A stretch of DNA of 64,000 nucleotides from Cyanobacteria bacterium REEB417 (GCA_018970945.1 JAGWVJ010000001.1:67357-131356), one strand, 5' to 3'. Counted from the stretch's first letter, positions 1-19,512 are shown. The notes: generated by a model from the sequence alone, not told the origin. A program made the numbers and translations.

Positions 1-1774
1 CCACCTGCTGACGCAGACTGGTCTGATCAAGATCGACGCTGCTGTAAGGGCCATAGCGGATCGCCCCCGACTGGGGTCGGTACAACCCGGCGATCAATTT
101 GCTGAGGGTGCTTTTGCCGCAACCTGACTCACCGACGAGGGCGGTGACCTTGCCACCGGGCAGGCGCAGATCCAGTTGATCGATCAGGGTGCAGCGACCA
201 GGATGGTGAAACACGAGCCCTTCACAGACGATGTCGTCGTCGGCCATGAGGGTGACCACATGGCGTGATGGGCCATGGCCATCCTCAACGGGATGGTCCA
301 TCACATCGCTGAGCCTGCGGATCACCAACTGGGAGGTGACCATCTCCTGGCAGAGCCCTCCCAGGGCAGCCAGGAAGGCGAGCACGTTGGACCCCATACC
401 GTTGAACGCCAGCAGCTGGCCGATGCTGAGCTGCTCCCGCAACACAAATGAACTGCCATACCAGAGCAACAGGATGCTGGTGCAACTGCCCAGCAGGGAG
501 GTGGCCGTCTGAGCCTTGAGATCGAGCAACTGCGTTCCCCAGGAGAGATGGGCCAGTCGGGAGAAATTGCGTTGCAACTCCTGCCAGGCCTGACCGGTGG
601 CTTCGGTGCTCTTGAGCAGGGAGGAGGCCCGGAACAGCTCCACCAGAAAGCCCTGGTTCTGGGCTGACTGGGCCAGCAGGCTGCGGGTCTTGCGCTGCAG
701 GGCCGGCACCACGGCCAGCTGAGCCAGCAGCACGGCGACGAATCCCAACAACGAAGCGAGGGTGAGCCAGAGGCTGTAACTGAGCATCCAGGCCAGCGAG
801 ATCAGGGCCATGCACAGCTGGCTTGGCAATCCCAGCACCAGATTTCCAAACAGCTGATTGAGCTGCTGAATGTCGTCGAGACGGCTGACGACTTCACCAC
901 TGCGCCGACCTTCGAAGTAGTCGAGCGGCAGCTGCAGCAAGCGCTGGCCGTAATGCAGAACCATCTGCAACTGCAGCTTCTGACCGAAGTGACCCACCAG
1001 CAGGCCCTGCATGAAGCTGAACACGCTGCGCAGAGCGAACAGCAGCAACAGGCCGATGCTCAGGGCGGCGAGCATGCCGCCATCGCCGCGCACCAGCACA
1101 TCGTCGGTGAGCACCTGCAGCAACAGCGGCATCGACAGCGCCATCACCCCGATCACCAGGTTCAGGCCCAGGGCCTGCAGCAACAGGGGTTGGAATGGCT
1201 TCAGAAAGCGGGCGAACACCCAGACGCCCTGGCCATCGGGATCATCGCTGTGGGCATCACGGGCCCAGCGGGCCGGATCCGGTTCGAGCAACAGCAAAAC
1301 GCCATTGCGCCAATGGCCCAGAAACGCCTCATCGCTGAGTTGGCGCAGACCAACGGCCGGATCGGCAACCTGGAGCAGGCCCTCGCGGTCTCGGCCGTGT
1401 AGCACCACCCAATGGTTGCCATCCCAGTGGCAGATCAAGGGCAACGGCAGGGTCTCGAGATCATCAAGCAATGACGGCTCGGCCCTGGCGGCACGCACCA
1501 CAAAGCCGAGGGCCTCAGCTCCCCGCCGCAACCCCAGCATTGTGGTGCCGTGCTGGGTGGTGCCCACCACCTGGCGCACCCGCGCCAGCGACAGCCGCTG
1601 TCCGTGAACCTCACAGACCGTGGCGATGCAGGCGGCTCCGCAGTCTTCTTCATCGTGCTGCCGCACGCAGGGGTGTTGGTCGGCCTGAGGCAGAAGCCAA
1701 CGTCGCAACCCGTGTCGGAGTGCAAGCATCTGCTGAAGAGCCGGCATCCAACGTCGCCATGGTGCTGTGGTCAT
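1..1774 (-). CDS. ABC exporter with N-terminal C39 cysteine-peptidase domain (bacteriocin/microcin processing-export type). The 3' end runs off the window, so it is absent from the ORF track.
   Basis: Own translation of the minus strand from ATG at 1774: MTTAPWRRWMPALQQ...QHDEEDCGAACIATVCEVHGQ (C39 catalytic Cys motif) ...CHWDGNHWVVLHG (His). Hydrophobic TM region follows. Walker A LPGGKVTALVGESGCGKSTL is encoded at about 105-170. Confidence 0.9.
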   Translation of the reverse strand, partial: MTTAPWRRWMPALQQMLALRHGLRRWLLPQADQHPCVRQHDEEDCGAACIATVCEVHGQRLSLARVRQVVGTTQHGTTMLGLRRGAEALGFVVRAARAEPSLLDDLETLPLPLICHWDGNHWVVLHGRDREGLLQVADPAVGLRQLSDEAFLGHWRNGVLLLLEPDPARWARDAHSDDPDGQGVWVFARFLKPFQPLLLQALGLNLVIGVMALSMPLLLQVLTDDVLVRGDGGMLAALSIGLLLLFALRSVFSFMQGLLVGHFGQKLQLQMVLHYGQRLLQLPLDYFEGRRSGEVVSRLDDIQQLNQLFGNLVLGLPSQLCMALISLAWMLSYSLWLTLASLLGFVAVLLAQLAVVPALQRKTRSLLAQSAQNQGFLVELFRASSLLKSTEATGQAWQELQRNFSRLAHLSWGTQLLDLKAQTATSLLGSCTSILLLWYGSSFVLREQLSIGQLLAFNGMGSNVLAFLAALGGLCQEMVTSQLVIRRLSDVMDHPVEDGHGPSRHVVTLMADDDIVCEGLVFHHPGRCTLIDQLDLRLPGGKVTALVGESGCGKSTLSKLIAGLYRPQSGAIRYGPYSSVDLDQTSLRQQV

Positions 1775-1791
1775 GACGTCGGCCGCACCGC

Positions 1792-2043
1792 TCAGGCAAC
1801 CACCAGGGCAGACCCGTTGCCCTGGCTGTTGAAGATGCTGCTGCTGAACATCGCCAGGTTGACCGCAACATTGATCTGCGGATTGACATTGAGAACGCTG
1901 CTCAGCGACGTGGTGGTGGAGGTGCTGGTAGCAGGAGCGGCCGCACACGGCCTGTAGCGACCAAGGCCCCTGCTTTCCATGCCACCACGGCCGGAACGAC
2001 CACCGCAGATCTGTTCGCTCTGAAGCTCAGTGAGTTCGATCAT
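1792..2043 (-). CDS. Double-glycine-leader peptide precursor B (83 aa), class II microcin/bacteriocin-like
   Basis: Internal ATG at 2043 of track ORF 1792..2127 gives MIELTELQSEQICGG followed by a Ser/Asn/Gly/Ala-rich core of 68 aa. The stop lies 17 nt upstream of the C39 exporter start on the same strand. Confidence 0.75.
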   Translation of the reverse strand: MIELTELQSEQICGGRSGRGGMESRGLGRYRPCAAAPATSTSTTTSLSSVLNVNPQINVAVNLAMFSSSIFNSQGNGSALVVA

Positions 2044-2057
2044 GACTGAAGAAGAAA

Positions 2058-2092
2058 ATGGGAAAAAGAGGAGAAGACTTAACCTTCTCCTC
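2058..2092 (-). terminator. Intrinsic terminator/attenuator hairpin between the two peptide genes
   Basis: Minus strand reads GAGGAGAAG-GTTAAGT-CTTCTCCTC-TTTTTCCCATTTTC. This is a perfect 9-bp stem (2084-2092 / 2068-2076), a 7-nt loop and a U-run. Confidence 0.5.
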
Positions 2093-2110
2093 CAAAAATG
2101 AGCCCAGAGA

Positions 2111-2353
2111 TCAGCCGAGCTGAGCAATCGACTGGAAGGCCAGATTGCTCTGTTCGTTGATCACCCCAGCGAAGCTGTTACGGCCGCCGCCGACAACAAC
2201 GTTGGTCGCCAGATTGGACTGCCGCAGGGTGTTTTCGTAGCTGGCCATGCTGAACACCGAAGAGAATGAGGAGGACGAACCACCCCAGCGACGGCCATTG
2301 CCACCACAGAGAGCCTCTAGTTGATGATCAGAAAGAATCGTGAGTTTTGTCAT
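2111..2353 (-). CDS. Double-glycine-leader peptide precursor A (80 aa), class II microcin/bacteriocin-like
   Basis: Internal ATG at 2353 of track ORF 2111..2431 gives MTKLTILSDHQLEALCGG followed by a 62-aa Ser/Asn/Gly-rich core. The leader has L-12, S-11, L-7, L-4, G-2 and G-1 as in GG-leader consensus. Confidence 0.75.
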   Translation of the reverse strand: MTKLTILSDHQLEALCGGNGRRWGGSSSSFSSVFSMASYENTLRQSNLATNVVVGGGRNSFAGVINEQSNLAFQSIAQLG

Positions 2354-2416
2354 AGCAAGATGCATTGAAGAACGGGGAAATCCCCGCTCCGGTTTAATCA
2401 ACCTCCACAGAACAGA

Positions 2417-2439
2417 CTTGAAAGCGATCAAATTTCAAG
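2417..2439 (-). promoter_or_regulatory. Inverted repeat upstream of peptide gene A (candidate operator/promoter element)
   Basis: CTTGAAA-N9-TTTCAAG, a perfect 7-bp inverted repeat, lies 64-86 nt upstream of the ATG at 2353. A second small hairpin, CGGGG-AAAT-CCCCG at 2373-2386, lies in the presumed 5' UTR. Confidence 0.3.
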
Positions 2440-2572
2440 CGCCTTTGCAGCAAACCGAAGCATGCAACGCAACAGCACAGATCGCCGACCAAGCACGTCA
2501 TCAAGCCACGAACATGACGTCCTGATCAGCTGCAGAACCGGGCACGATGGGCTTGCTCAGTAAAGTTCAATC

Positions 2573-3250
2573 ATGAAGCGCGTGAGCTCAGACAAGGCAG
2601 CACCAAGCGAGTCCTGGCCCGACGTCGCCCTGCCCGTCGTGGAAACCTTCTGCTCGCTCCAGGGCGAGGGACTGCATGCGGGTCGCAGCGCCTTCTTCAT
2701 TCGTCTCGGAGGATGCACGGTCGGCTGCAGCTGGTGCGACACCAAGCACTCGTGGCCCGGTGACGGCCACGCCCGGCAGACTCTGGAGGCCCTGCTGGTG
2801 GCGGCACAGGCGGCGGCGGCGGATGGGGCCGCCTTTGTGGTGATCACCGGGGGAGAGCCCCTGCACCACGACCTGGGACCCCTTTGCACAGCCCTGGCGC
2901 ACTGCGGCCTGCCCCTGCACCTGGAAACCAGCGGTGTCGACTCCCTGAGCGGTCGCTTTGACTGGATCACCCTGTCGCCCAAACCCCACCGTCCCCCGTG
3001 CGAGGCACTGCTGCAGCACTGCGACGAACTCAAGGTGGTGTTGCGCTGCGATGCCGACCTGGTCTTCGCCGAGGCCATGGCCCAACAGGCCAGCGCGCTG
3101 CGCACCAAAACAGGAACCCCAGCTCCTGCGCTGCTGCTGCAGCCGGCCTGGGACAACCCTGAGGGACTACGACTGGCCCTCAACCATGTGCGTCATCACC
3201 CCGCCTGGCGCCTGAGCCTGCAGACCCACAAGTGGCTGGCGATCCGCTGA
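2573..3250 (+). CDS. queE: 7-carboxy-7-deazaguanine synthase (radical SAM)
   Basis: ETFCSLQGEGLHAGRSAFFIRLGGCTVGCSWCDTKHSW: QueE-type N-terminus with a CxxxCxxC-like cluster motif. Confidence 0.9.
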   Translation: MKRVSSDKAAPSESWPDVALPVVETFCSLQGEGLHAGRSAFFIRLGGCTVGCSWCDTKHSWPGDGHARQTLEALLVAAQAAAADGAAFVVITGGEPLHHDLGPLCTALAHCGLPLHLETSGVDSLSGRFDWITLSPKPHRPPCEALLQHCDELKVVLRCDADLVFAEAMAQQASALRTKTGTPAPALLLQPAWDNPEGLRLALNHVRHHPAWRLSLQTHKWLAIR

Positions 3251-3272: not shown

Positions 3273-3794
3273 TCAGAGCGCCTGGGCCTCGCGTGACTCG
3301 CGCTCGGCCTTCCACATCCGCCAACGCACCTGCAGCGCCGCCGGGGCATACACCACGATCGGCCGGCTGACCACGTAAGGCACCACGTAGGGCTTGCCCG
3401 CCATGGTCACGAAGGTCTGCCGGCGCGGCTGATCGGATGGACAGGCCATCCGGGTCGACACCAGGGGGCCCACGGCGTCGACGCGAAACAGCATCGGGGT
3501 GTCCTCGCTCAGGCGCCAGGGCCGTATGCGGCCCGAAAAGGAGTGCTGGTTGCAGTCGACCTGAGCCGTCTGACCGACGATCAGCTGCACGCGCCACTCC
3601 CGTGGATCGGCCGAGAGCGCCGGATCCCGGGTGGGGGGCAGCACCCCGGGCAACTGGATCACCCAGCGGCGCTCACCGGCGGCCGGAGGGGGATAGGACG
3701 TCAGGTCGAGACGCGGAACCGCTGCGGCCGGCAGGGCCACCAACCCCATGGCCACGCCGGCGGCAGCAACGACGAGGGGCCGGATCAACGCCAT
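3273..3794 (-). CDS. eco: Ecotin-family periplasmic serine-protease inhibitor
   Basis: Start taken at the internal ATG at 3794, giving signal peptide MALIRPLVVAAAGVAMGLVALPAAA. RRWVIQLP...QLIVGQTAQVDCNQH...VGPLVSTRMACPSD...PIVVYAP...VRWRMWKAE is collinear with E. coli ecotin (QVIQL...LLIGQTLEVDCNLH...VSTMMACPDG...PIVVYTP...YRVWKAE). Confidence 0.85.
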   Translation of the reverse strand: MALIRPLVVAAAGVAMGLVALPAAAVPRLDLTSYPPPAAGERRWVIQLPGVLPPTRDPALSADPREWRVQLIVGQTAQVDCNQHSFSGRIRPWRLSEDTPMLFRVDAVGPLVSTRMACPSDQPRRQTFVTMAGKPYVVPYVVSRPIVVYAPAALQVRWRMWKAERESREAQAL

Positions 3795-3847
3795 GGGTTC
3801 CGGAACAGGACTGACCCCATGTTGATCGGATCTGCCAGCCTTGGGCC

Positions 3848-4549
3848 ATGACCGCCCCAAGCCCTGACCCGACCCGGCCACTCGCGATCGCCCTGCTCTC
3901 GGGAGGGCTCGATTCGGCCACCGCTGCCGCCCTGGCGCTGGAGGCGGGCCATGCGGTGATCGCCCTGTCACTCGACTATGGCCAGCGCCACCGGCGCGAG
4001 CTCGAGGCCGCCGCCACCGTGGCCGCCGCCCTCGGCATTGCCGAACATCACACCCTGGGCGTGAACCTGGCGGCCTGGGGTGGCTCGGCCCTGACCGACA
4101 GCGCCATCACCATGCCCACGGCGGGGCCGGAGCCGGATGTGATTCCCAGCACCTATGTACCCGGACGCAACACGGTGTTCATCGCCCTGGGTCTCAGCCT
4201 GGCCGAAGCCCGGGGCGCCACGCGGTTGGTGCTCGGCGTCAACGCCGTCGACTATTCGGGATACCCCGACTGCCGGCCTGACTACCTGGCGGCGTTTCAA
4301 CAGCTCGCCGGCCTGGGCAGCAAGGCCGGCCGGCAGGGCCGCAGCACCGAGCTGTGGGCGCCGCTGGTGCACTGGAGCAAGACCGAGATCGTGCAGCAGG
4401 CCCTGCGCCTGGGGGTGCCGATCGAGGCCACCTGGAGCTGTTACAGCGGCGGCGATGCGCCCTGCGGAGTGTGCGACAGCTGCCGCATCCGTGATGCAGC
4501 CCTGATCGAGGCGGGCCGGCCCGATCTGGCCAGCAGCCATGGCCGCTGA
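3848..4549 (+). CDS. queC: 7-cyano-7-deazaguanine synthase
   Basis: [17 protein letters not shown]-loop motif. C-terminal CxxCxxC ([10 protein letters not shown]) zinc motif. Confidence 0.92.
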
Positions 4550-7382: not shown

Positions 7383-8096
7383 TCAGACGCTCAGGAACCG
7401 CTGAAGCATCTCAGGGCTGAGATCGCGGGTGGCGCCGCTGGCCACCACTCCCCCTTTCTGCATGGCGTAGTACCAGTCGGACTGGCGCACGAAACTGGCG
7501 TGGTGCTCCACCAGCAGCACCCCGATCGACGTCTCCTTGAGAATGCGCGCCACGGCCCGCTGGATGTCGAGCACAACCGACGGCTGGATTCCTTCGGTGG
7601 GTTCGTCCAGCAACAGCAGACGCGGCCTCCCAAGCAGGGCGCGGGCGATCGCCAGCTGCTGCTGCTGGCCACCGGAGAGGTCACCTCCGCGGCGATTCAG
7701 AAAGGTCTCGAGCACGGGAAAGAGCTCGAACACCAGCGGATCGATGTGACGGTTGCGCGCCAATCCCCCTGGAAGCGCCTCGAGACCCAACTGCAGGTTT
7801 TCACGCACCGTGAGCTGGGGAATGATCTCGCGGCCCTGGGGCACGTAGCCGATGCCACCCCGGGCGCGGCGATGGGGCGGCTGCGTCGAGATGTCCTCGC
7901 CGGCCAACCGCACGTTACCGCTGCGCTGGCGCAGCAGGCCGATGATTGTCTTGAGCAGGGTGGTCTTGCCAACCCCGTTGAGACCGATCAGACAGGCCAT
8001 CTGACCCGGCGCAATCGAAAGATCGACGTTGCGCAGGATATGGCTCTCGCCATAGTAGACGTTAAGCCCAGTGACCTGCAGAACAGGGTCAGTCAT
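7383..8096 (-). CDS. urtE: Urea ABC transporter ATP-binding protein
   Basis: GLNGVGKTTLLKTI Walker A and LSGGQQQQLAIARAL signature. Last gene of the five-gene urt array. Confidence 0.92.
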   Translation of the reverse strand: MTDPVLQVTGLNVYYGESHILRNVDLSIAPGQMACLIGLNGVGKTTLLKTIIGLLRQRSGNVRLAGEDISTQPPHRRARGGIGYVPQGREIIPQLTVRENLQLGLEALPGGLARNRHIDPLVFELFPVLETFLNRRGGDLSGGQQQQLAIARALLGRPRLLLLDEPTEGIQPSVVLDIQRAVARILKETSIGVLLVEHHASFVRQSDWYYAMQKGGVVASGATRDLSPEMLQRFLSV

Positions 8097-8869
8097 GATT
8101 GAAATTCCCCCTCAGTTTCAGTGCCCAGATAAACCTCGATCACCCGCGGATCGTTCTGCACGACATCCATGGATCCTTCGCAGAGCACGTGGCCCTCGTG
8201 CAGCACGGTCACCGGAGCCTGAAGTTCCCGAATGAAATCCATGTCGTGTTCGATCACCAGCACGGTGTGATCGCCCGCGAGGCTGCGCAACAGCTTGCCG
8301 GTGAGCTCGGTTTCCTCATCGGAGAGCCCTGCCACCGGTTCGTCGACCAGCAGCAGCTCAGGGTCCTGCGCCAGCAACATGGCGATCTCGAGCCATTGCT
8401 TCTGGCCGTGGGAGAGGCTGCCGGCCTGCTGAGCGACATGGCGTTCAAGCCCTACGACGGCGAGCAACTCCTGCACACGCTGGCGCTGCTGCGCGCTGAG
8501 CCGACCGAACAGCAGGGTGAGCGGACCATGGCTGCCCTTGACGGCCAGATCCAGGTTGTGACCGACCGTCAGGTTCTCGATCACCCGGGGGGTCTGAAAC
8601 TTGCGCCCGATGCCCAGGCGGGCGATGCGATGTTCAGGGATCCCCACCAGTGAACGACCCCGGAACAGAACATCGCCGCGTGTCGGGCGCACCTTGCCGG
8701 TGATCACATCGAGAAAGGTGGTCTTGCCGGCACCGTTGGGACCGATCACCGCCCGCAGCTCACCAGGCAGAAGAGCCAGGTCAAGATCCTTGAGGGCCCA
8801 GAATCCATCAAAGCTGACGCTGACCCCGCGCAACTGAAGCAGCGGCGCCACTGCTGTGGAGTGGCTCAT
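8093..8869 (-). CDS. urtD: Urea ABC transporter ATP-binding protein
   Basis: GPNGAGKTTFLDVITG, LSHGQKQWLEIAML and LLLVDEP motifs. 4-nt overlaps with both neighbours. Confidence 0.92.
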   Translation of the reverse strand: MSHSTAVAPLLQLRGVSVSFDGFWALKDLDLALLPGELRAVIGPNGAGKTTFLDVITGKVRPTRGDVLFRGRSLVGIPEHRIARLGIGRKFQTPRVIENLTVGHNLDLAVKGSHGPLTLLFGRLSAQQRQRVQELLAVVGLERHVAQQAGSLSHGQKQWLEIAMLLAQDPELLLVDEPVAGLSDEETELTGKLLRSLAGDHTVLVIEHDMDFIRELQAPVTVLHEGHVLCEGSMDVVQNDPRVIEVYLGTETEGEFQS

Positions 8870-10011
8870 TTCATACCTCCCTCAAGTTCGGACCGTTCGG
8901 CCTGCACGGCAGGGTCGAGATCGAGCTGTGGGTAGGTGGCCGTGCGCGGGGGCCAGCCCAGCATCGAGGCCAGGCGACCGGGACCACCACGGCGCCACCA
9001 GCCCACCAGCCCATCAGGCAGGGCTGTCACCACCAGCAGGAACAGACCCCCCTGGATGAACAGCCAGGTTTCGGGAAGAGCCTCACTGACCAGGCTCTTG
9101 GCGTAATTGATCAACACGGCACCGAGCACGGCGCCGATCAGGGTGCCGCGCCCCCCCACCGCCACCCAGATCACCATCTCGATCGAGAAGGGCACAGCCA
9201 TGTACTGGGGGCTGACGATGCCTGACTGCACCGTGTAGAGAGCACCGCTCACCCCCGCCATGGCTCCGGCCACTGCGAACACCAGGGTCTTGTAGACCGT
9301 CGTGTTGTAACCGGTGAAGCGAAGCCTGGGCTCGTCATCGCGGATCGCGATCAGGGCGTCGCCGAAGCGGCCTCGGGTCAACCAGCGGCTCAGCAGATAG
9401 GCACCAACCACCAGCAGCACCGTGAGCCAGAACAGATTGCGCTGCATGGAATCGCTGCCGACGAGTTCGCCGAACAGGCGGGCCGTGTCGGTCTTCAGGC
9501 CGTTGGTGCCGTTGATCAACTTCTGCTGGCCGTTGAAGAAGTTGAAGAAAACCAGCAGGGCCGCCTGGGTCAGGATCGAGAAATAGACACCCTTGATGCG
9601 GTTGCGAAACACGAGATAACCGAGCACCCCAGCCACCAGCGCTGGCAACACCCAGATGCAGAGCAGGGTGAACAGGGGCGAGGTGAAGGGCTGCCAGAAC
9701 GCCGGCAGGGCCTTGACGCCATAGAGACCGAAGAATTCGGGCAGCTCCCCCGGGGCTAGCGCACTCAACTGCAGATGCATCCCCAGGGCATAGCCACCAA
9801 GGGCAAAAAAGATGCCCTGACCCAGGCTGAGGAGCCCGGTGAAGCCCCAGATCAGATCGATGCCGAGGGCAACGATGCCGAGCGACAGGAAGCGACCCAG
9901 CAGGTTGAGCCTGAAGGGCGGCAGCAGCACCGGCAGCACCAGGGCCGCAATCACGATCAGCAGCCAGGGAAGACTGCGTCTGAGGTGACGGCTCGAGACA
10001 AGATCAGCCAT
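8866..10011 (-). CDS. urtC: Urea ABC transporter permease
   Basis: Multi-TM branched-chain-type (LivM-like) permease positioned between urtB and urtD. Confidence 0.9.
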   Translation of the reverse strand: MADLVSSRHLRRSLPWLLIVIAALVLPVLLPPFRLNLLGRFLSLGIVALGIDLIWGFTGLLSLGQGIFFALGGYALGMHLQLSALAPGELPEFFGLYGVKALPAFWQPFTSPLFTLLCIWVLPALVAGVLGYLVFRNRIKGVYFSILTQAALLVFFNFFNGQQKLINGTNGLKTDTARLFGELVGSDSMQRNLFWLTVLLVVGAYLLSRWLTRGRFGDALIAIRDDEPRLRFTGYNTTVYKTLVFAVAGAMAGVSGALYTVQSGIVSPQYMAVPFSIEMVIWVAVGGRGTLIGAVLGAVLINYAKSLVSEALPETWLFIQGGLFLLVVTALPDGLVGWWRRGGPGRLASMLGWPPRTATYPQLDLDPAVQAERSELEGGMK

Positions 10012-10014
10012 GGA

Positions 10015-11172
10015 TCAGGCCTCCACCAGGCGGCCTTTCTGTGGGAACAGACCGGCCGGTCTGAACTGCAGAAAGACGACGATCAGCGCAAACACAAGCA
10101 CCTTGGCCATGGAGGTGGTGGCAAAGAAGGTCACCAGCTCGTTGATGGCAGGAGGCATCGCCGGCCACACCAGCAGAAGTGAACCGGAGCCGACGATGTA
10201 ACTGAGCACGCCGATGCCCAGGGCCGCCACCACGGTGCCGACCAGCTTGCCGACACCTCCGAGCACCACCACCATGAAGCAGTCGACGATGTAGTTGCCG
10301 CCCAGGTTCGGGCCGACCGAACCGAGCAGGGTGACCGCCACGCCGGCCACCCCAGCCAGGCCGGAGCCCACCAGAAACGTGAGGGCATCGACCGTTTCGG
10401 TGGGAATGCCGAGACAATCGCTCATCGAACGGTTCTGGGTGACGGCGCGGATGCGCATCCCCCAGACACTCTTCTGGAGAAACCAGAGGACACCCCCGAG
10501 CGCAAGGGCTGTCAACGCGATGATGAACAGACGCGCTGTGGGCATGTTGAGAGCGCCCAGATCAACCGCACCGCGCAGCCACTGGGGGGCCGTCACATCG
10601 ATGTTGCGGGCGCTGAACCAGGGTTGATCGAGAGCGCGCACCCCACCCAGGGCCGAAGCCAGAACGATGCCGACCAGGGCTGAAACCACCCAGGTACCAA
10701 CCCCCAGCAGGGGACTCCAGCGCCGTTGCCACAGGTCCGCCGGGGTGAAGCGGGGCAGAAACAGGCCCAGGACCACCGCCACCACCAGGCCGATGGCGAA
10801 GGCACTGCTGACCGAGCGCACGAACTGCTGCAGGATCAGACTGACTCCCCAGGTCGCCAGCAGGGTCTCGAGCGGGCGGCCGTAGAGCCTGCGAATCACG
10901 GTCTTTTCCAGGAGCAGACCGGCCAGACCGCTCACCACAAAAGCGACGGGGATCGCAATCAGGATGTAAACCGGGAACAGTGCCTCCAGGGGCCCTTCCT
11001 TGAACAGGTTCTGGACCACAAAAGTCGTGTAGGCACCGAGCATCATCAACTCGCCATGGGCCATGTTGATGACACCCATCAGACCGAAGACGACAGCCAG
11101 ACCGAGAGCGGCAAGGACAAGAACCGAACCGATCGCCAGGCCGTTGAAGAGTGTGTCGTAGAGAAGATCCAT
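10015..11172 (-). CDS. urtB: Urea ABC transporter permease
   Basis: Start taken at the internal ATG at 11172 (MDLLYDTLFNGLAIGSVLVLAALGLAVVFGLMGVINMAHGE, LivH-like). The upstream part of the track ORF is Arg/Ser-rich and non-protein-like. Confidence 0.9.
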   Translation of the reverse strand: MDLLYDTLFNGLAIGSVLVLAALGLAVVFGLMGVINMAHGELMMLGAYTTFVVQNLFKEGPLEALFPVYILIAIPVAFVVSGLAGLLLEKTVIRRLYGRPLETLLATWGVSLILQQFVRSVSSAFAIGLVVAVVLGLFLPRFTPADLWQRRWSPLLGVGTWVVSALVGIVLASALGGVRALDQPWFSARNIDVTAPQWLRGAVDLGALNMPTARLFIIALTALALGGVLWFLQKSVWGMRIRAVTQNRSMSDCLGIPTETVDALTFLVGSGLAGVAGVAVTLLGSVGPNLGGNYIVDCFMVVVLGGVGKLVGTVVAALGIGVLSYIVGSGSLLLVWPAMPPAINELVTFFATTSMAKVLVFALIVVFLQFRPAGLFPQKGRLVEA

Positions 11173-11260
11173 CAGGACCGGCAAAAGAGAAAAGGGGGGA
11201 TCGATATCCCCCCTGAAAGAACTCAATCTGATTGCATGAATGCAATCGCTGAGCCCGTGA

Positions 11261-12568
11261 TCACATCTTGAACTTACCGGCGTCCGGACGCTTCTGCGTC
11301 CAGTCACAGGTGTAGCCCTTGGTCTCCGGCACGAACTGGTTCCAGGCCACGGGCTTGACGAAGCCCTTGTCCTCAAGAATCTTGAACATGCCGTCTTTCT
11401 GCACCTCGCCAATCAGCACACGCTTCTCGACGTGGTGGTTGGGCATCACGGTCACCTTGCCCTCAGGCGCATCGAAGCTCACACCGATCAGGGCTTCGCG
11501 CACCTTGTTGTCATCGACACTGTTGGCCTTCTCTGCGGCAGCGGCCCACAGGTAAACCATCATGTAAGCGGCTTCAGCGGGGTCATTGGTGACCCGCTTG
11601 TCGCCATACTTGGCCTTGAAGTTCTTGGTGAACTCCTTGGACGCGGGGGTGTCAAGGCTCTGGAAGAAGTTCCAGGCGGCAAAGGTGCCCTCGAGATACT
11701 CAGGACCGATAGCGGCGATCTCCTCTTCGGCGATCGAGAAGCTCATGATCGAGTATCCGTTGGCCGGGGTGATGCCGGCAGCCTTCATCTGCTTGAAGAA
11801 GGCGACATTGCTGTCACCGTTGAGGGTGTTGACGATCACACCACCCTTGGGCAGGGCCTGTTTGATCTTGGCGATGATCGGAGCCACCTCAGTGTTGCCC
11901 AGGGGCAGGTAGTCCTCACCCACCACCTTGCCGCCGCTCGCCTTGAGCTGCTCCTTCATGATGGTGTTGGCGGTACGCGGATAGACGTAATCCGAACCAA
12001 CCAGGAAGAAGTCCTTGCCCTTGTTCTTGAGCAGCCAGTCGACAGCGGGCTCGGCCTGTTGGTTGGGGGCAGCGCCGCTGTAGAAGATGTTCTTCGAGCA
12101 CTCCTGACCCTCGTACTGAATCGGGTAGAAGAGGAAGTGATCCTTGGCTTCGAACACCGGCAGCATCGCCTTGCGGCTGGCCGAGGTCCAGCCACCGAAG
12201 ACCACGGCGACCTGGTCCTGATCGATCAGTTTCTTCGCTTTCTCAGCGAAAGTGGGCCAATCGGAGGCTCCGTCCTCCTCGACGGGAACGATCTTGAGCT
12301 TCTTGCCGTCGACGGTGATGCCACCTTTGGCATTGATCTCATCGATGGCCATCAGCTCGGCTTCGGCCACCGTGTTCTCGGAGATGGCCATGGTGCCCGA
12401 GCGTGAATGAAGGATGCCGACCTTCACTTCGCCGTCAAACTTGCCGCCGGCCTGGTCACCGCCGCCGCAGGCGACCAGTGACAGGGAGGTGGCCAGAAGC
12501 GTGGCACCGCCAACCAGGGGCAGAACCGACTTCCGCTTCAGGGGAAACGTCATGGGTTGCAAAAACAC
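11261..12568 (-). CDS. urtA: Urea ABC transporter substrate-binding lipoprotein
   Basis: Lipobox LSLVAC followed by GILHSRSGTMAISE... (UrtA/amide-binding family). GTG at 12568 or ATG at 12553. Confidence 0.92.
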   Translation of the reverse strand: MFLQPMTFPLKRKSVLPLVGGATLLATSLSLVACGGGDQAGGKFDGEVKVGILHSRSGTMAISENTVAEAELMAIDEINAKGGITVDGKKLKIVPVEEDGASDWPTFAEKAKKLIDQDQVAVVFGGWTSASRKAMLPVFEAKDHFLFYPIQYEGQECSKNIFYSGAAPNQQAEPAVDWLLKNKGKDFFLVGSDYVYPRTANTIMKEQLKASGGKVVGEDYLPLGNTEVAPIIAKIKQALPKGGVIVNTLNGDSNVAFFKQMKAAGITPANGYSIMSFSIAEEEIAAIGPEYLEGTFAAWNFFQSLDTPASKEFTKNFKAKYGDKRVTNDPAEAAYMMVYLWAAAAEKANSVDDNKVREALIGVSFDAPEGKVTVMPNHHVEKRVLIGEVQKDGMFKILEDKGFVKPVAWNQFVPETKGYTCDWTQKRPDAGKFKM

Positions 12569-12643: not shown

Positions 12644-12712
12644 CGTTTCTCCAGCCGATGGGACCCGTTGCGCCGCAGTGCTTCTGGGCCTCTATCAAGG
12701 GACAATTCCGCT

Positions 12713-12722
12713 GTAACGCTGG

Positions 12723-12726
<4 letters not shown>
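12713..12726 (-). promoter_or_regulatory. Perfect NtcA consensus GTA-N8-TAC
   Basis: GTAACGCTGGCTAC overlaps the ureG stop codon, about 150 nt upstream of urtA. I see no good -10 box at the canonical 22-nt spacing. Confidence 0.4.
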
Positions 12727-13325
<599 letters not shown>

Positions 13326-13384
13326 CAGAGCTTCCCCGTGCCGAGGCCCCACAGTGCTGCCATCCTGGCGCCGGGCGGTAGACG

Positions 13385-14020
13385 GTGATGATCCGCAGGC
13401 TGAACCGACTGGACTTCGGCAACGTGGGCCTGGCCATGCTCACCGGCGCCGGTGTGAGCATGGGTTTCATCCAGCTGCTGGCCGGCTCCCTCGAACAGGT
13501 GGCCAACGTCAGTGTTCAGGTGATGGCGGTACGGACCACAACCCTGGTGGCGCCGGTTCTGATCAGCCTGCTGTTGCTGCTGCGCGACGGGCCGCTGATG
13601 ATCAGGCTGGGGGCCCGGTACGCCCGTCGCCGGGCGAACCGGTTGCGTCAGGTCTGGCGCCAGCAGGCCGGCGGCCTGATCTTCAGCGCCCTGGCCCAGC
13701 TGCCTTACCTGCTGGCCGCCGCGCTGATGGCGGCGATGCTGACCCGGCCCGAACTCGACAGCCTCGATGAACTGCGCTTCCTGGTGGGCAACCTGGATCC
13801 GCTGTTGCTGGGTTTGAGCCTGTTCAAGACCGCGCTGTTTACGGGTCTGACCCTGTGGATCGCCCTCGACCAGGGTGCCCGGGCCCACCGTCGCGACCTG
13901 CTGCCGACGGCGGGCCTGTCACGGGCGATCAGCATCAGCCTGGCGGCGGTGCTGGTGCTCGACCTTGGCTGGGCGTTGCTGATCACTCCCCTGATCGCTG
14001 AGAGGGGACTGGTGCCATGA
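13385..14020 (+). CDS. MlaE/TGD1-like ABC permease (short, divergent)
   Basis: Multi-TM protein with [12 protein letters not shown] and ...[18 protein letters not shown]...[20 protein letters not shown] resembling the MlaE C-terminal core. Translationally coupled (4-nt overlap) to the MCE gene. Confidence 0.6.
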
Positions 14021-14856
14021 CGCGCATCCGCAGGACCCTGCATGAAGCCGAGCGCGAACATCGGGGCTGGCTTGGGGGCAGCCTGCTGCTGCTGCTGTTG
14101 CTGGTGGCGGGCATGGGCGTCCCTCGCAACTGGTGGTCACCGAGCGTGGAACTCAGTTTTCGCACCTACAGCGCCGCCCGTCTCAAACCGGGCATGCCGG
14201 TCATGATCTCGGGCTACCCGGTGGGCCAGGTGCAACGGATCCACCTGCTCAACGACGCCCAGGTGCATGTGACGCTGCAGGTGGCCAGAGCCCAGCGGTT
14301 CATGATCGGGCCCCGCAGTCGGGCCGCCCTGGCGCAGGACGACCTGCTCAGCAGCCCTTACATCGCCATCAACCCCGACCTGCACGATCTCGACCGTCGA
14401 GGGCCCGGCGCCCAGGGCGAAACCCTCATCTATGAGGACAGCCCCAGCATGGCCAGCCTGTTCAAGGATCTGGCCGCCAGCCGCGTTCCCCTGCAGACGC
14501 TGCTCAACAGCAGCGCCAGGTTGGTGGAGCAACGCATGCCACGCTCGCTGGATCAGCTGGACCGCACCATGGGCAGCGGCGAACGGCTGGTGAACAGCCT
14601 CGAGCGTGACCTGGCGGGCCGGGCCGGCGCCCTGGAAGCCAGGGTCGAGCGCGCCACCGGTCAGCTGGAGACAACGCTCAGCGCGGTGCAATCGACCTTG
14701 GGCGACATTCAGGCCCTGGCGCGCAGCAGCAACGCCCTGTTGCAGGGCCTCAGTCGCAGCTGGTTGCTGCAGTTGCTGCAGCCGTCACCAGAGTCGACTC
14801 GGCCAGCACCATCGGCGGCAGGCTCAGGCCCAGGAGCCGGGCCGTCACTGCGTTGA
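14017..14856 (+). CDS. MlaD/MCE-domain protein
   Basis: N-terminal TM helix (GGSLLLLLLLVAGMGV). MCE-like core LKPGMPVMISGYPVGQVQRIHLLNDAQVHVTLQV...SPYIAINP, then a long helical tail. Confidence 0.75.
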   Translation: MTRIRRTLHEAEREHRGWLGGSLLLLLLLVAGMGVPRNWWSPSVELSFRTYSAARLKPGMPVMISGYPVGQVQRIHLLNDAQVHVTLQVARAQRFMIGPRSRAALAQDDLLSSPYIAINPDLHDLDRRGPGAQGETLIYEDSPSMASLFKDLAASRVPLQTLLNSSARLVEQRMPRSLDQLDRTMGSGERLVNSLERDLAGRAGALEARVERATGQLETTLSAVQSTLGDIQALARSSNALLQGLSRSWLLQLLQPSPESTRPAPSAAGSGPGAGPSLR

Positions 14857-14915
14857 GCCAGACCTGCGGGGTGCCGGGCCGCCCAGCAACCGCAGTCCAG
14901 AGCGACGGGTGAGGG

Positions 14916-15641
14916 TCAACTGCGAAACAGACGGGAGTACAGCTCTGCATGCTGAAGTTGGGCCAGGCCCGCGCCCACGGCACCACTCCAGAGTGAGGCA
15001 GGATCGACGTCGGCCAGCTGCTCGCCACGGGCGGCGATCAGCGGCGCCAGCTGCCACTGCAGCCGCTGGCCCTCGGTGGGACCCAGCGGCACCAGGCGCA
15101 CCGCCGCACTGATCTGGTTTGCCGTCCAGCCGTAGAGGTAGGCCTGCTCCAGCTGCGGCGATGCCAGCTGGGCACACACCCCGGCCCAGGCATAGGCAGC
15201 GGGCCAGGCCAGGGTTCGCAGCAGCACGGCGCCCCCGGCCGGTGAACCCGGGGGCAGCAGGGGCCCGCACAGGTCGTTGAGCAGCTGCAGCAGGGAGGAT
15301 CCCATCTGACGTTGCTGGGCGCGCACCTCGGCGGCTTCACGCTGGGCCAGCAACCAACCGTCGCGCTCGGCCAGGGCCGCCGCGGCGCCGGCTTCACCCG
15401 TGCTCAGGCCAGCGATGAGCAGCGTCAGGCCGGAGAGGGCCGCTGCCTCGATCGCGACGCTGCCGCGCTGCAGTTCGGCCTGCAGCCAGCCCTGAAGGGC
15501 CGCTGCCGAGTCCAGCCCACCGGCCTGCTGCAGGGCCTCGAGACCCTCCGAATAGCTGAAGGCACCCACCGGCAGGGCCGGGCTGACCAGCTGCATCAGA
15601 CGCAGCAGGGCCCGGTGCGGGTCAGTGGTGGTGATGGCCAT
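14916..15641 (-). CDS. ureF: Urease accessory protein
   Basis: Internal ATG at 15641: MAITTTDPHRALLRLMQLVSPALPVGAFSYSEGLE (UreF signature). Confidence 0.88.
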   Translation of the reverse strand: MAITTTDPHRALLRLMQLVSPALPVGAFSYSEGLEALQQAGGLDSAAALQGWLQAELQRGSVAIEAAALSGLTLLIAGLSTGEAGAAAALAERDGWLLAQREAAEVRAQQRQMGSSLLQLLNDLCGPLLPPGSPAGGAVLLRTLAWPAAYAWAGVCAQLASPQLEQAYLYGWTANQISAAVRLVPLGPTEGQRLQWQLAPLIAARGEQLADVDPASLWSGAVGAGLAQLQHAELYSRLFRS

Positions 15642-16137
15642 GGCCCTCCACGGCTGCATAGGCTCCCGCTTCGGGCAGAAACGGCGCCTCGATCGCCTCG
15701 ACCCCCAACCCCCGGCGCCGCAGCAGATCGAGCAACACCGGGTCGTGCTGCAGGAGCAGGTGGTCGGAATGCAGCTCCAGGGGCACATGGCGGTTGCCCA
15801 GGTGATAAGCCGCCTGCATCAGAGCCAGGGGATCCGCCGCCGCCGTCACCCGCAGCAGGGGCTCGGGGGCAGCCACCACCGCGACAGCCACCTGCGCATC
15901 GTCGCTCAGCAGCCACTCACCAGGCTGCAGCGCCGCGCCACGGGGCAGCTGCAGGAGCAGGTCATGGCCGCAGCTGCTGCGGCGATGGCCGCGCAGGCTG
16001 GTGCGCTGATCCGCACGCAGGCTCATCTGCAGGCGCCTCAGCGCCCCAGCGGGCAGAGCCGCGCCTGCCTCCAGGCGTCGCACCAGCAACACAGAAGCCA
16101 CTGCAGCAGAGTGGAAGACATTGCTGCAGGATCGCAC
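15622..16137 (-). CDS. ureE: Urease accessory metallochaperone (start uncertain; GTG options at 16137, 16101, 16092)
   Basis: LQLPRGAALQPGEWLL, AAYHLGNRHVPLEL and a C-terminal His-rich tail EGHGHHHH. Overlaps the ureF start by 20 nt. Confidence 0.85.
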   Translation of the reverse strand: MRSCSNVFHSAAVASVLLVRRLEAGAALPAGALRRLQMSLRADQRTSLRGHRRSSCGHDLLLQLPRGAALQPGEWLLSDDAQVAVAVVAAPEPLLRVTAAADPLALMQAAYHLGNRHVPLELHSDHLLLQHDPVLLDLLRRRGLGVEAIEAPFLPEAGAYAAVEGHGHHHH

Positions 16138-17030
16138 TGGAGAGCTGGACGAGCCACGCCTGGCTGCAATTCAGCCAGCGGCAGAACCGCACGGTGCACC
16201 AGGGGCGGGCCAGTGCTCCGCTCAAGCTGCAACGTGCCTTCTGCCAGGCCAGCGGGCACTGCGAGCTGCCCCTGCTGCACACCGCCGGGGGCCTTGTGGG
16301 GGGCGACCAGCTGAGCTTGACGGTCGAGGCCAAGGCCCACAGCCGTGCCCTGATCACCACCGTGGCCGCCCAGAAGGCCTATGGCAGCGTGGGTCGCTCG
16401 CGGGTTCACCCCGGCGGTCGCTGGGCCCGGCAGCGGGTGGAAGTCCAGCTCGAGCAGGGCAGCGATCTGGAGTGGCTGCCGCAGGAGCTGGTGCTCTACA
16501 GCGGCGCCCTTTATGAGCAGACGCTGGAGGTGAATCTGGCCGCCGATGCCGCGTTTCTGGGGGCCGAGGTGGTGCGCTTCGGCCGCACCGCCGCCGGCGA
16601 AGGGCTGGGCCCGGGCTGCTGGCGCTCGGCACTGACCATCCAGCGTCAGCACCCAGACGGCCCCCGCTGGGACCTGGTCGATCGGCTCGAGCTTGGCGAT
16701 GCCGCCCTGACGAGCCCCCATGGCCTGGGGGGGGAGCCGGTGTTCGGCTCCCTGGTCTGGGCGGCGCCGCTCGCCCTGAAGCCGGCCGAGCTGGCTGGGC
16801 TGCTCGCGCTGTGCCGCAGCGACCGCAACGGGCTGCCGGGGACCATGGCCTGTGGACCCCTCGAGCAGGGGCTGATCGCGCGCTACCGCGGCAGCTCGAC
16901 CCAGGCGGCCCGCTTCTGGTTCAGCCGCATCTGGGCGCGGTTGCGCGCGTTCCGTGCCCTGCAGCCACCCCAGCTGCCGCGGGTGTGGCCGTTTCAGGAG
17001 AACCCGTGGCCCGAAGCTGGTTCAACCTGA
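16137..17030 (+). CDS. ureD: Urease accessory protein (start codon unresolved)
   Basis: AWLQFSQRQNRTV...APLKLQRAF...LLHTAGGLVGGDQLSL is UreD-like. The homologous region begins before the first in-frame ATG/GTG/TTG (GTG at 16194). Only CTG (16101, 16137) or ATC (16131) are available. Confidence 0.8.
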   Translation: MESWTSHAWLQFSQRQNRTVHQGRASAPLKLQRAFCQASGHCELPLLHTAGGLVGGDQLSLTVEAKAHSRALITTVAAQKAYGSVGRSRVHPGGRWARQRVEVQLEQGSDLEWLPQELVLYSGALYEQTLEVNLAADAAFLGAEVVRFGRTAAGEGLGPGCWRSALTIQRQHPDGPRWDLVDRLELGDAALTSPHGLGGEPVFGSLVWAAPLALKPAELAGLLALCRSDRNGLPGTMACGPLEQGLIARYRGSSTQAARFWFSRIWARLRAFRALQPPQLPRVWPFQENPWPEAGST

Positions 17031-17066
17031 ACGACCGCCGCCGCAGAGCCCTGACAAACTGACCCC

Positions 17067-17683: not shown

Positions 17684-17716
17684 GCCCAGCCCTCAACCGC
17701 TTCGCAGCAGAACCCC

Positions 17717-19429
17717 ATGGCCTACCGCATCTCGCGCCGTGCCTACGCCGAGACCTATGGCCCCACCACCGGTGACCGGTTGCGGCTGGCCGACACCGAA
17801 CTGATCCTCGAGGTCGAAAAGGACTTCACCGTCTACGGCGACGAGGTGAAGTTCGGCGGGGGCAAAGTGATCCGCGACGGCATGGGCCAGGCCCAGACCA
17901 CACGCGCAGACGGTGCGGTCGACACGGTGATCACCAATGCCCTGATCCTCGACTGGTGGGGCATCGTCAAAGCCGACATCGGTCTGCGGGACGGGCGCAT
18001 CGTGGCCATCGGCAAAGCCGGCAATCCCGACACCCAGACGGGCGTCGACATTGTGATTGGTCCCGGCACCGAGGCCATCGCCGGCGAGGGGCACATCCTC
18101 ACCGCCGGCGCCATCGACACCCACATCCATTTCATCTGTCCCCAGCAGGTGGAGACCGCCCTTGCCAGCGGGGTCACGACCATGCTGGGCGGCGGCACCG
18201 GTCCGGCCACGGGCTCCAACGCCACCACCTGCACCCCCGGCGCCTTCCACATGGCCCGCATGCTGCAGGCGGCCGAGGGCCTGCCAGTCAATCTGGGCTT
18301 CTTCGGCAAGGGCAACGCCAGCACCCCCGAGGGTCTCGAGGAACAGATCCGCGCCGGTGCCATCACCCTCAAGCTGCACGAAGATTGGGGCACCACGCCC
18401 GCCGCGATCGACTGCTGCCTGTCGGTGGCGGATCGCTTCGACATCCAGGTGGCGATCCACTCCGACACCCTCAACGAGGCCGGGTTCGTGGAGGACACCA
18501 TTCGCGCGATCGGTGGCCGCACCATCCACACCTTCCACACCGAAGGGGCCGGCGGCGGCCATGCGCCCGACATCATCCGGATCTGCGGCGAAGCCAACGT
18601 GCTGCCCAGCTCCACCAACCCCACGCGCCCCTACACCCGCAACACGCTCGAGGAGCACCTCGACATGCTGATGGTGTGCCACCACCTCGATCCGCGCATT
18701 CCGGAGGACGTGGCGTTCGCCGAATCGCGGATCCGGCGCGAAACCATCGCCGCCGAGGACATCCTGCATGACCTGGGAGCGTTCTCGATCATCGCCAGCG
18801 ATTCCCAGGCCATGGGACGGGTGGGCGAGGTGATCACCCGTACCTTCCAGACCGCCCACAAGATGAAGGTGCAGCGCGGCGCCCTCCCCGGAGACAGCGC
18901 CCGCAACGACAACACCCGCCTCAAGCGCTACATCGCCAAGGTGACGATCAACCCCGCGATCGTGCACGGCATCGACCACCAGGTGGGCTCGGTGGAGGTG
19001 GGCAAGCTGGCCGATCTGGTGCTGTGGAAACCGGGCTTCTTCGGCGTCAAGCCCGAACTGGTGCTCAAGGGCGGCTCGATCGTGTGGGCCCAGATGGGTG
19101 ACGCCAACGCCTCGATCCCCACCCCGGGCCCCGTGCACGGCCGCCCCATGTTTGCGGCCTTTGGCGCGGCCCTGGCGCCCAGCTGCCTCACCTTCTTGAG
19201 CCAGGCGGCCCTCGATGACGACGTACCCCGCAGGCTGGGTCTCCGGCGCACCTGTGTGCCGGTGATCAACACCCGCGGCGGCATCGGCAAGGCCAGCATG
19301 CGCAACAACACCGCCACCCCCGCCATGGCGGTCGACCCCCAGACCTACGAGGTCTATGCCGACGGTGAACTGCTCACCTGCGAGCCCGCCGAGGTGCTGC
19401 CAATGGCGCAGCGTTACTTCCTGCTCTGA
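17717..19429 (+). CDS. ureC: Urease alpha subunit
   Basis: [21 protein letters not shown] and MVCHHLD nickel-site motifs; 570 aa. Confidence 0.97.
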
Positions 19430-19512
19430 ACCAAGCCGAAGCAGAATCGCAGTACTGTTCAAAAACAATCAACACCAGCCAGGACACTGGCGACCTGGAT
19501 TCAGAGTCAAGA

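Follow-up and report, generated by a model that had tools for sequence, protein, structure and literature searches.

The window analyzed in this study, a stretch of 64,000 nucleotides from Cyanobacteria bacterium REEB417 (GCA_018970945.1, JAGWVJ010000001.1:67357-131356), carries at its left end two small genes, here named pep1 and pep2, followed on the same minus strand by the gene of a peptidase-containing ABC exporter of the PCAT/AMS type. A first-pass annotation of this DNA had described two double-glycine-leader genes hidden inside longer open reading frames (ORFs), with cores of 62 and 68 amino acids, 17 nt and about 340 nt upstream of the exporter, and both genes are present where it had placed them. 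pep1 (2353..2111) begins with an ATG at 2353 and ends with a TGA stop codon at 2113..2111; its program-made translation of 80 amino acids comprises an 18-residue double-glycine leader (2353..2300, MTKLTILSDHQLEALCGG) and a core of 62 residues and 6.5 kDa (2299..2114). pep2 (2043..1792; ATG at 2043, TGA at 1794..1792) was likewise translated by program into 83 amino acids, with a double-glycine leader of 15 residues (2043..1999, MIELTELQSEQICGG) and a core of 68 residues and 6.9 kDa (1998..1795). Each gene is nested in a longer, mechanically called ORF with a TTG start (2431..2111 and 2127..1792, respectively). The exporter gene (1774..1) starts with an ATG at 1774, which by our measurement lies 17 nt past the pep2 stop and 337 nt past the pep1 stop, and the first 591 of its 753 residues are encoded within the window. 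A permissive scan of all six frames of the window gave no other free-standing candidate for a double-glycine-leader peptide.

Contigs L001-L006, which are 99.85-100% identical to the window and reach 3.8 kb further left, supplied what the window lacks of the exporter, its last 162 residues, together with an entire gene for an HlyD-family adaptor. The cassette consists of pep1, pep2, the exporter and HlyD, and its genes are tightly packed: besides the 17 nt between pep2 and the exporter, the exporter and HlyD genes overlap, and 90 nt separate HlyD from the next gene. In the extension, this next gene encodes a protein of the NAD-dependent sugar epimerase/dehydratase family and is followed by a gene for UDP-glucose 6-dehydrogenase (UGDH). 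The first-pass annotation had advised extending the contig to the left to look for the ATPase end, an HlyD-type adaptor and a TolC-like gene; the first two were found, and the third was absent from the 3.8-kb extension as well as from the 20 window ORFs, a subset of all, that were scanned with Pfam. In cyanobacteria, the TolC component is normally encoded elsewhere in the genome.

Judged from sequence comparison, pep1 and pep2 are genuine genes, as dN/dS and independent gene calls indicate, and both are under purifying selection. Gene callers had independently predicted the exact pep2 product, which the index places in 40 blocks of the collection. We examined 23 contigs with this product, L001-L006 among them. 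Full-length homologues (11 of pep1 and 15-17 of pep2) were 59-96% identical; all came from freshwater picocyanobacterial metagenome-assembled genomes (MAGs) or lake metagenomes, and every one with a source name was annotated as hypothetical. The alignments of both peptides share three parts, namely a conserved leader ending in GG, a variable linker, and a nearly invariant C-terminal domain. The linkers (Gly/Arg/Ser/Thr) vary in length and sequence, with a Gly/Ser/Arg linker in pep1 and a hypervariable Arg/Gly linker in pep2. Pairwise whole-gene dN/dS was 0.11-0.32 for pep1 and 0.15-0.30 for pep2, and values for the C-terminal domains were about 0.1-0.14 for pep1 and 0.13-0.17 for pep2. Compared with the most distant loci, the C-terminal domains had a dN of about 0.11-0.16 at a dS of about 0.7-1.1; the leaders behaved alike, and the linkers were relaxed. 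With the synteny described below, this is the conservation in relatives that the first-pass annotation had proposed to look for. For pep1, gene callers chose an upstream ATG at 2365, which gives 84 amino acids; this codon is out of frame in the relative L008 and absent from L009, which rules it out and places the start at 2353. Whatever their role, pep1 (from 2353) and pep2 deserve annotation.

The exporter has C39, transmembrane and ATPase domains. Its C39 peptidase domain (1672..1277; residues 35-166) matched Pfam Peptidase_C39 with an E-value of 2.5e-31 and 108.7 bits against a cut-off of 22. The motif QHDEEDC45GAAC, with the catalytic Cys45 encoded at 1642..1640, aligned with the catalytic-cysteine motif of PCAT1, and GNH121WVVL, which contains His121, aligned with the PCAT1 histidine region; the intact C39 motif (QHDEEDCGAAC ... 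HW) reported in the first pass was thereby borne out. The transmembrane domain (1171..401) matched ABC_membrane (1.1e-32), and the start of the ATPase (181..2), with the Walker A motif GESGCGKST, matched the first 59 model positions of ABC_tran within the window (2.9e-12). The complete exporter, taken from L001 (99.9% identical to the window), has 753 amino acids from a conserved ATG. Gene callers started it at a Met nine codons inward (744 amino acids), and the ATG at 1774 is conserved in four loci. At full length, the protein aligned end to end with PCAT1 (4RY2; E 5e-94) and with ComA (8HF4; about 1e-83). Walker A, the signature LSGGQ (LSGGQRQR), Walker B (ILILDE) and the H-loop (ISHR) were all aligned, those beyond Walker A being seen in L001. 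A cNMP-binding (CAP_ED) domain is lacking, which makes this exporter one of the "short type" of Wang et al. Scores against the NCBIfam models TIGR01193 (341.2 bits, cut-off 523.85), TIGR03796 (381.7, cut-off 853.3) and TIGR01846 (389.6, cut-off 725.55) stayed below the cut-offs, and the exporter was therefore assigned by domain architecture and to no named subfamily. The HlyD-family adaptor has 390 amino acids and matched TIGR01843 (1.5e-40); its ATG overlaps the exporter stop codon, an arrangement of translational coupling.

The leaders fit this peptidase. In the C39 domain LahT150, the side chains at positions -4, -7 and -12 of the leader helix occupy a groove, and the cut falls after GG (PMC6363468). 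GG ends the leader invariantly in 11 pep1 and 15 pep2 homologues, and the leader lengths of 18 and 15 residues lie within the range of 15-30. The pep1 leader has Leu at -4, -7, -12 and -15, a full match to the groove positions, and the pep2 leader has Ile, Ser and Leu at -4, -7 and -12, a partial match, with Cys at -7 in other homologues. All ten peptides examined from this exporter clade have GG at -2/-1 and hydrophobic residues at -4, -12 and -15, and position -7 is Ser, Cys or Ala in pep2 and most related peptides. The architecture named in the first pass, double-glycine peptides feeding a peptidase-containing exporter of the ComA/CvaB/LagD type, describes the locus well. Since peptidase and ATPase are intact and the adaptor is translationally coupled, it is very probable that both cores would be cleaved from their leaders and exported without modification.

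Relatives of the cassette were found by a search with the exporter, using one genome per species. Three MAGs (L007, L008 and L009), whose exporters are 98%, 95% and 80% identical, respectively, have queC, an ecotin gene, queE, pep1, pep2, the exporter, HlyD, the epimerase gene and the UGDH gene in the same order. The peptides of L009 are 68% (pep1) and 59% (pep2) identical to those of the window, close to its queE and HlyD (69% each), indicating that peptides and neighbors diverge at about equal rates. From the syntenic loci and this neighbor-like divergence, the cassette looks chromosomal and vertically inherited. No immunity, modification or regulator gene was found on either side of the cassette or in the syntenic relatives, which extends to both sides what the first pass had reported for the right side.

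More distant exporters are accompanied by other sets of peptides. In Vulcanococcus (L010, exporter 60% identical), two double-glycine peptides, the exporter and HlyD lie in another neighborhood. A metagenome contig (L020, 2092-6568; 64%) has four tandem double-glycine peptides of 72, 72, 70 and 80 amino acids, the exporter and HlyD; the first two of these resemble pep1, and the fourth has the pep2-like motif QINIAVNLA. The Vulcanococcus and L020 peptides matched pep1 in a profile-profile comparison that reached into the core (probability 96.5%, E 9e-10). In L012 (2067-3503; 59%), the double-glycine peptides number two to three, are very rich in Asn (FLNKSFNRTKTDNRQINVDLSDNR...) and are encoded upstream of the exporter and divergent from it. 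L011 (3133-4551; 58%) has no small peptide gene next to the exporter; upstream are a second ABC/HlyD pair and a 472-amino-acid protein in which GGxGxD-like (RTX-type) motifs recur, and this protein may be a different class of substrate for a close relative of the exporter. L012 is titled a Mesorhizobium MAG and L011 a Chitinophaga MAG; both have a GC content of about 0.65 and picocyanobacterial-type exporters, suggesting that these bins are mislabeled.

The peptide genes are less GC-rich (0.556 for pep1 and 0.599 for pep2) than the window (0.666), as the first-pass annotation had noticed. Its suggestion of a mobile or fast-evolving cargo was not supported: at least three further lineages, with exporters 80-98% identical, have the cassette at this very place in the chromosome, the peptides diverge like their neighbors under purifying selection, and searches found neither plasmid matches to the two peptides nor phage matches to the 2.45-kb region. 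An origin from a mobile element was rejected on the grounds of conserved synteny and the lack of plasmid and phage matches. GC at third codon positions was 0.64 in pep1, 0.71 in pep2, 0.76 in the exporter, 0.71 in HlyD and 0.67 in the epimerase gene, and at first positions it was 0.53 in the peptides versus about 0.70. The dip in GC is accordingly due to amino acid composition, mostly at codon positions 1 and 2, and to AT-rich spacers.

Two lineages keep the peptide genes without an adjacent exporter. In one lake lineage (L017-L019; L017:8256-8600), pep1 and pep2 are intact beside queE, only about the first 63 codons of the exporter remain before a stop codon (still including RQHDEEDCGAAC), and HlyD is gone; next comes a 277-amino-acid protein with an apparent signal peptide, beta-barrel-like features and a C-terminal Phe. 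The other is a 1.4-kb contig with a GC content of 0.54 (L021:212-1039), on which a pep1 homologue, a hairpin and a pep2 homologue are followed by a convergent RHH_5 (ribbon-helix-helix) gene. In the comparison of L009 with L017, which spans both branches, omega of the C-terminal domains was about 0.1, and the peptide genes are intact in the exporter-less lineages. Either another C39 exporter serves the peptides there, or the loss is recent.

The hairpin is a recurrent feature of the spacer between pep1 and pep2. In the window, a consensus scan and folding identified a terminator-like or attenuator-like element (2093..2048, minus strand) that consists of an 11-bp GC-rich stem (GGAGGAGAAGG/UCUUCUCCUCU) with the loop UUAAG (2093..2067) and a U-rich tail (2066..2048), and that folds with -18.8 kcal/mol (z -2.25). 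A hairpin and U-run are found at the equivalent spot in L007, L008, L009, L017, the Vulcanococcus locus L010 and L021, which together with the window makes seven loci. The stems differ between loci; for example, L008 has GGGAGAGGGG/CCCCUCUCCC, L009 has GGGGAAGGC/GCCUUCCCC, and L010 has GGGGCC/GGCCCC (z -4.0). Retention of the structure while the stem sequence varies argues that the hairpin is functional. In the simplest reading, it is probably a leaky intrinsic terminator that would leave more pep1 mRNA than read-through transcript for pep2, the exporter and HlyD.

Upstream of pep1, a non-coding spacer of 219 bp (2354..2572, GC 0.51) separates the cassette from the divergent queE, which occupies 2573..3250 on the plus strand; the start of this right-hand neighbor at 2573 agrees with the first pass. 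The spacer presumably holds the promoter and 5' untranslated region (UTR). A consensus scan detected no sigma-70 consensus within these 219 bp. An alignment of four loci revealed the conserved blocks TGCTTC.G.TTGC.GCA and TAAAC.GGA.CGGGG within 2354-2440, and a small stem (CGGGG-AUUU-CCCCG) lies some 25 nt ahead of the pep1 start codon; such elements may belong to the promoter, an operator or the 5' UTR. The region also contains a Cys-rich ORF of 35 codons (MTCLVGDLCCCVACFGLLQRRLKFDRFQVCSVEVD; 2504..2394, minus strand) that is open in the three closest loci and is not hydrophobic. As a hidden immunity gene it was rejected, because 8 of 35 residues differ between near-identical genomes and the frame is broken in L009, and it was treated as part of the non-coding 5' region.

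The cores are small, cationic and polar. Their masses are 6515 Da (pep1) and 6889 Da (pep2), their pI values are 10.7 and 11.4, and Asn, Gln, Ser, Thr, Gly and Ala together make up about 60% of their residues. The maximal hydropathy over 19 residues was 0.71 and 0.97, respectively, indicating that neither core has a transmembrane helix. The pep1 core has no Cys, and the single Cys of pep2 is in the hypervariable linker and is not conserved. In pep1, QSNLA occurs at residues 45 and 68 on either side of GGGRNSFAGVINE, forming an internal repeat (QSNLATNVVV ... GGG ... QSNLAFQSIA) with the look of strand-turn-strand-strand, and the invariant positions are mainly Asn, Gln and Gly with alternating hydrophobic residues. 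The invariant core motif of pep2 is N-x3-QIN-x-A-x-NLA-x-F...N-x-QGNG, whose element QIN[VI] also occurs in peptide 4 of L020 (P0031) and in the L012 peptides.

Searches with both peptides gave no family above threshold in Pfam or NCBIfam and no match among PDB sequences. pep1 matched the NCBIfam model NF038167, "CTB family bacteriocin", over the leader and first part of the core with 18.5 bits (E 0.0017) against a cut-off of 32 bits; membership was rejected, since this is below threshold and none of ten relatives passed (P0027 with 15.8 bits, the others without a match). AlphaFold gave a mean pLDDT of 43 and 50 for the two peptides and no confident monomer fold. Among 1.84 billion representative proteins, the pep1 profile found three clusters, one of them spurious (P0028, a repeat protein of 1013 amino acids), and the pep2 profile added only P0030 and, at the borderline, P0031. 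pep2 was weakly related to pep1 (57%). The strand-turn motif GGG(R)NS had prompted a search for curli homology, which was rejected for lack of any match to Curlin_rpt (PF07012) at E up to 1 and is kept as an analogy; CsgA chains were absent among PDB sequence matches at E up to 10.

A possible model for what these peptides may do outside the cell comes from Synechococcus elongatus, in which the ebfG1-4/pteB/hlyD genes encode secreted proteins of 6-7 kDa that are needed for biofilm, EbfG1-3 forming amyloid (PMC4997328; PMC9981879). Similar clusters of Anabaena have been proposed as equivalents of ebfG/pteB (PMC12267927), and adherent Prochlorococcus is reported to up-regulate an ebfG-like gene located close to a candidate pteB (bioRxiv 10.1101/2025.08.05.668435). 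We regard it as evenly poised whether the following explanation holds as a whole: the locus would be a four-gene secretion cassette of a freshwater Cyanobium-like picocyanobacterium, and its exported cores would associate with themselves at the cell surface or in a matrix. What we observed are the genes, how well they are conserved, the features of the leaders, intact motifs of peptidase and ATPase, the order of the genes and a hairpin that recurs; cleavage, export, transcript stoichiometry and extracellular role are inferred, along the following route. Transcription would begin in the spacer between queE and pep1. The hairpin and U-tract after pep1 would stop most transcripts, leaving more pep1 mRNA than read-through for pep2, the exporter and HlyD. 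The precursors of 80 and 83 amino acids would be recognized through the helical double-glycine leader with its hydrophobic residues at -4, (-7), -12 and -15, and the C39 domain would cut past Gly-Gly. The unmodified cores of 62 and 68 residues would then pass the exporter and the adaptor and leave by an outer-membrane channel of the TolC type, whose gene lies elsewhere. The cleave-and-export step is established for PCAT/AMS transporters.

For the cores themselves, we tentatively propose a role as EbfG-like, self-associating cell-surface or matrix proteins, and hold this part somewhat less firmly. The conserved domains are rich in Asn, Gln and Gly and strand-like, the linker is free and AlphaFold predicts no stable monomer fold; in addition, families of several paralogues co-evolve with one exporter clade, and EbfG/PteB provides a precedent. 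Several points weigh against a matrix role. None of pep1, pep2 and eight related peptides contains the EbfG amyloid hotspot A-[F/I]-N-I-[G/S]; they have only loose look-alikes (INVA in pep2, PNIG/INIG in Vulcanococcus, and INVG and INIA), and the cores matched neither Curlin_rpt nor solved amyloid or bacteriocin structures. The likeness to EbfG is one of gene order and size, taken from published descriptions. The low AlphaFold confidence may be only an effect of shallow alignments, the small and strongly cationic cores also fit unmodified bacteriocins, and the genome could encode immunity at another place. Finally, the two lineages without an adjacent exporter indicate that coupling to this pump is common, not obligatory.

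A more specific proposal, which we consider unlikely in its full detail, is that pep1 and pep2 are the major and minor (nucleator-like) subunits of a hitherto unrecognized functional amyloid or beta-solenoid fiber of planktonic freshwater picocyanobacteria, for which a type-I-like C39 ABC pump would take the place of a curli-type pathway in secretion. The ratio of the subunits would depend on the conserved terminator between the genes, and the formation of microcolonies or aggregates on the fiber. The two peptides would belong, with those of Vulcanococcus, L020 and L012, to a wider superfamily that is Asn-rich and EbfG-like and has co-evolved with a single clade of exporters.

The most serious competitor is that pep1 and pep2 are bacteriocins without modification, akin to class II microcins or to class II bacteriocins, maybe a two-peptide pair, which would be exported by PCAT, HlyD and TolC and kill competing cyanobacteria or heterotrophs, with immunity encoded elsewhere or intrinsic. 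The architecture is canonical for colicin V, lactococcin G and ComA-type systems, there are two adjacent peptide genes, and the cores, at 6.5-6.9 kDa, are cationic and rich in Gly, Ser and Ala like class II microcins; Wang et al. listed such clusters as bacteriocin clusters, and pep1 has its weak, sub-threshold match to the CTB family model (E 0.0017). An immunity-like gene is nevertheless missing from the cassette, whose short gaps leave no space for one, from all four syntenic loci and from Vulcanococcus; a 140-amino-acid membrane protein encoded near the Vulcanococcus cluster is absent here. Hydrophobic or transmembrane segments are lacking in the cores, as are GxxxG helices. Bacteriocin loci are usually patchy and diversifying, unlike this vertically inherited, syntenic locus under purifying selection, and the peptides stay constrained where the adjacent exporter has been deleted. 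Moreover, the sole cyanobacterial group III cluster that has been studied experimentally is not antibiotic (PMC4997328). We thus regard bacteriocins as doubtful here, and a toxin role seems less likely than a matrix role, given the lack of an immunity gene in a packed cassette, the lack of a membrane-active segment, and vertical inheritance under purifying selection.

Secreted peptide signals, i.e., pheromones or quorum-sensing peptides of the ComC/ComAB kind with a receptor kinase encoded elsewhere, are very improbable. The exporter is ComA-like (E about 1e-83), and the peptides are kept within a narrow clade, as is often the case for pheromones; however, neither the cassette nor its flanks contain a histidine kinase or response regulator, and two distinct conserved domains with repeat-like, Asn-rich strands would be unexpected. 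Known double-glycine pheromones are also far shorter than 62-68 amino acids. Least probable of all are precursors of peptides that are made on the ribosome and modified after translation (RiPPs), with tailoring enzymes elsewhere, like the prochlorosins of marine picocyanobacteria, for although precursor genes are indeed dispersed in picocyanobacteria, apart from the enzyme that modifies their products (Wang et al., PMC3140520), and the cores are rich in Ser and Thr, the lack of a conserved Cys in either core excludes lanthionine rings, the leaders are short and of class II type (15-18 amino acids) and match neither the Nif11 nor the NHLP family, and the cassette has no modification enzyme. The first-pass annotation had left the function open, a secreted structural peptide included, which we judge appropriate.

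Beyond the cassette, the rest of the window contains housekeeping genes (urt, urease, ppk, aconitase (acnB), uvrA and dnaK). An ecotin homologue (PF03974, 6.6e-31) lies between queC and queE (3273-3971, minus strand), a position kept in all syntenic relatives; its mechanical ORF of 232 amino acids has a GTG start and overlaps the start of queC, and the protein has 170-175 amino acids as called in relatives. Ecotin is a periplasmic inhibitor of serine proteases. The next 12 kb hold a urea ABC transporter (7383-12568, minus strand; periplasmic binding protein, permeases and ATPases) and a urease cluster (12700-19500). With these genes, and ppk, acnB, uvrA and dnaK beyond them, the cassette is placed in the core chromosome and not in a genomic island. 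Antisense within the gene for the urease alpha subunit (17717..19429, plus strand), Rfam RF02514, "5' ureB small RNA", matched at 17868-18158 on the minus strand (113 bits, E 6e-29); conservation of the urease coding sequence is the likeliest source of this match, more so than a real small RNA in this organism.

Cyanobacterial clusters of double-glycine peptides are routinely labeled "bacteriocin", and the sole tested one of this type, ebfG/pteB, builds biofilm matrix. The locus adds two conserved, unannotated peptide families in lake picocyanobacteria, which are ecologically dominant and poorly studied. It is also a useful test case, as it combines a four-gene cassette without an immunity gene, an attenuator-like hairpin, and natural variants that have lost the adjacent exporter and keep intact peptide genes with constrained C-terminal domains. 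If the cores are self-assembling surface proteins, they would bear on the switch of picocyanobacteria from single cells to microcolonies; if they are toxic, this clade would have its first unmodified bacteriocins.

We finally compared the cassette with known systems. With curli (CsgA/CsgB), units of strand-GGG(R)NS-strand and conserved Asn and Gln are shared, by eye only, as are two genes with apparently unequal expression, here suggested by the hairpin; curli differ in using Sec plus CsgG in place of a double-glycine leader and an ABC pump, and pep1 and pep2 are not of the curli family. PCAT1 of Clostridium thermocellum and ComA of Streptococcus resemble the exporter over its full length, including the conserved Cys, Walker A and B, the signature motif and the H-loop. 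In contrast to them, the exporter has an N-terminal extension of 34 residues before the C39 domain, and its Gram-negative host requires HlyD and an outer-membrane channel. Class II microcins such as colicin V (cvaC, cvi, cvaA, cvaB and TolC) share the double-glycine leader, the C39 ABC exporter with an HlyD-family adaptor, and an unmodified peptide of 6-9 kDa rich in Gly, Ser and Ala. Unlike these, the present cassette has no adjacent immunity gene, its cores have no hydrophobic, membrane-active segment, and it is chromosomal, syntenic and vertically inherited instead of being carried on a plasmid or island.

The closest precedents, which the first-pass annotation missed, are cyanobacterial. 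Group III as defined by Wang, Fewer and Sivonen in 2011 comprises one or more precursors, a short-type C39 ABC transporter and HlyD, without SurA, LanM or a second ABC transporter, and clusters of this group were listed for Cyanobium PCC 7001 and for S. elongatus, the latter being the ebfG/pteB cluster (PMC3140520). The cassette has the domain content and neighbors of this group; both core families differ in matching no catalogued family, and "bacteriocin" is a label from annotation that reflects no tested function. The non-antibiotic precedent within the group is EbfG1-4/PteB (PMC4997328, PMC9981879). As in EbfG1-4/PteB/HlyD (Synpcc7942_1134-1132 of PCC 7942), double-glycine proteins are encoded directly upstream of a short-type C39 exporter, which is followed by HlyD (PMC12267927). 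The mature products of both systems have about 6-7 kDa, neither has an immunity or modification gene, and there are several paralogous peptides per cluster, the relative L020 with its four peptides having the same count and order as ebfG1-4/pteB/hlyD. The peptides of both are lineage-restricted, with no homologues in other cyanobacteria. The differences are that the cassette has two peptides instead of four and a hairpin after its first gene, whereas in S. elongatus a transcript of all four ebfG genes was detected by PCR; that the amyloid hotspot is absent here, biofilm and amyloid roles having been demonstrated for EbfG only; and that the host is a planktonic picocyanobacterium of lakes. Overall, this kind of cassette, a cyanobacterial group III set of double-glycine peptides, C39 ABC exporter and HlyD, is known, nothing about it is mechanistically unprecedented, and what is new are the two core families that it carries.

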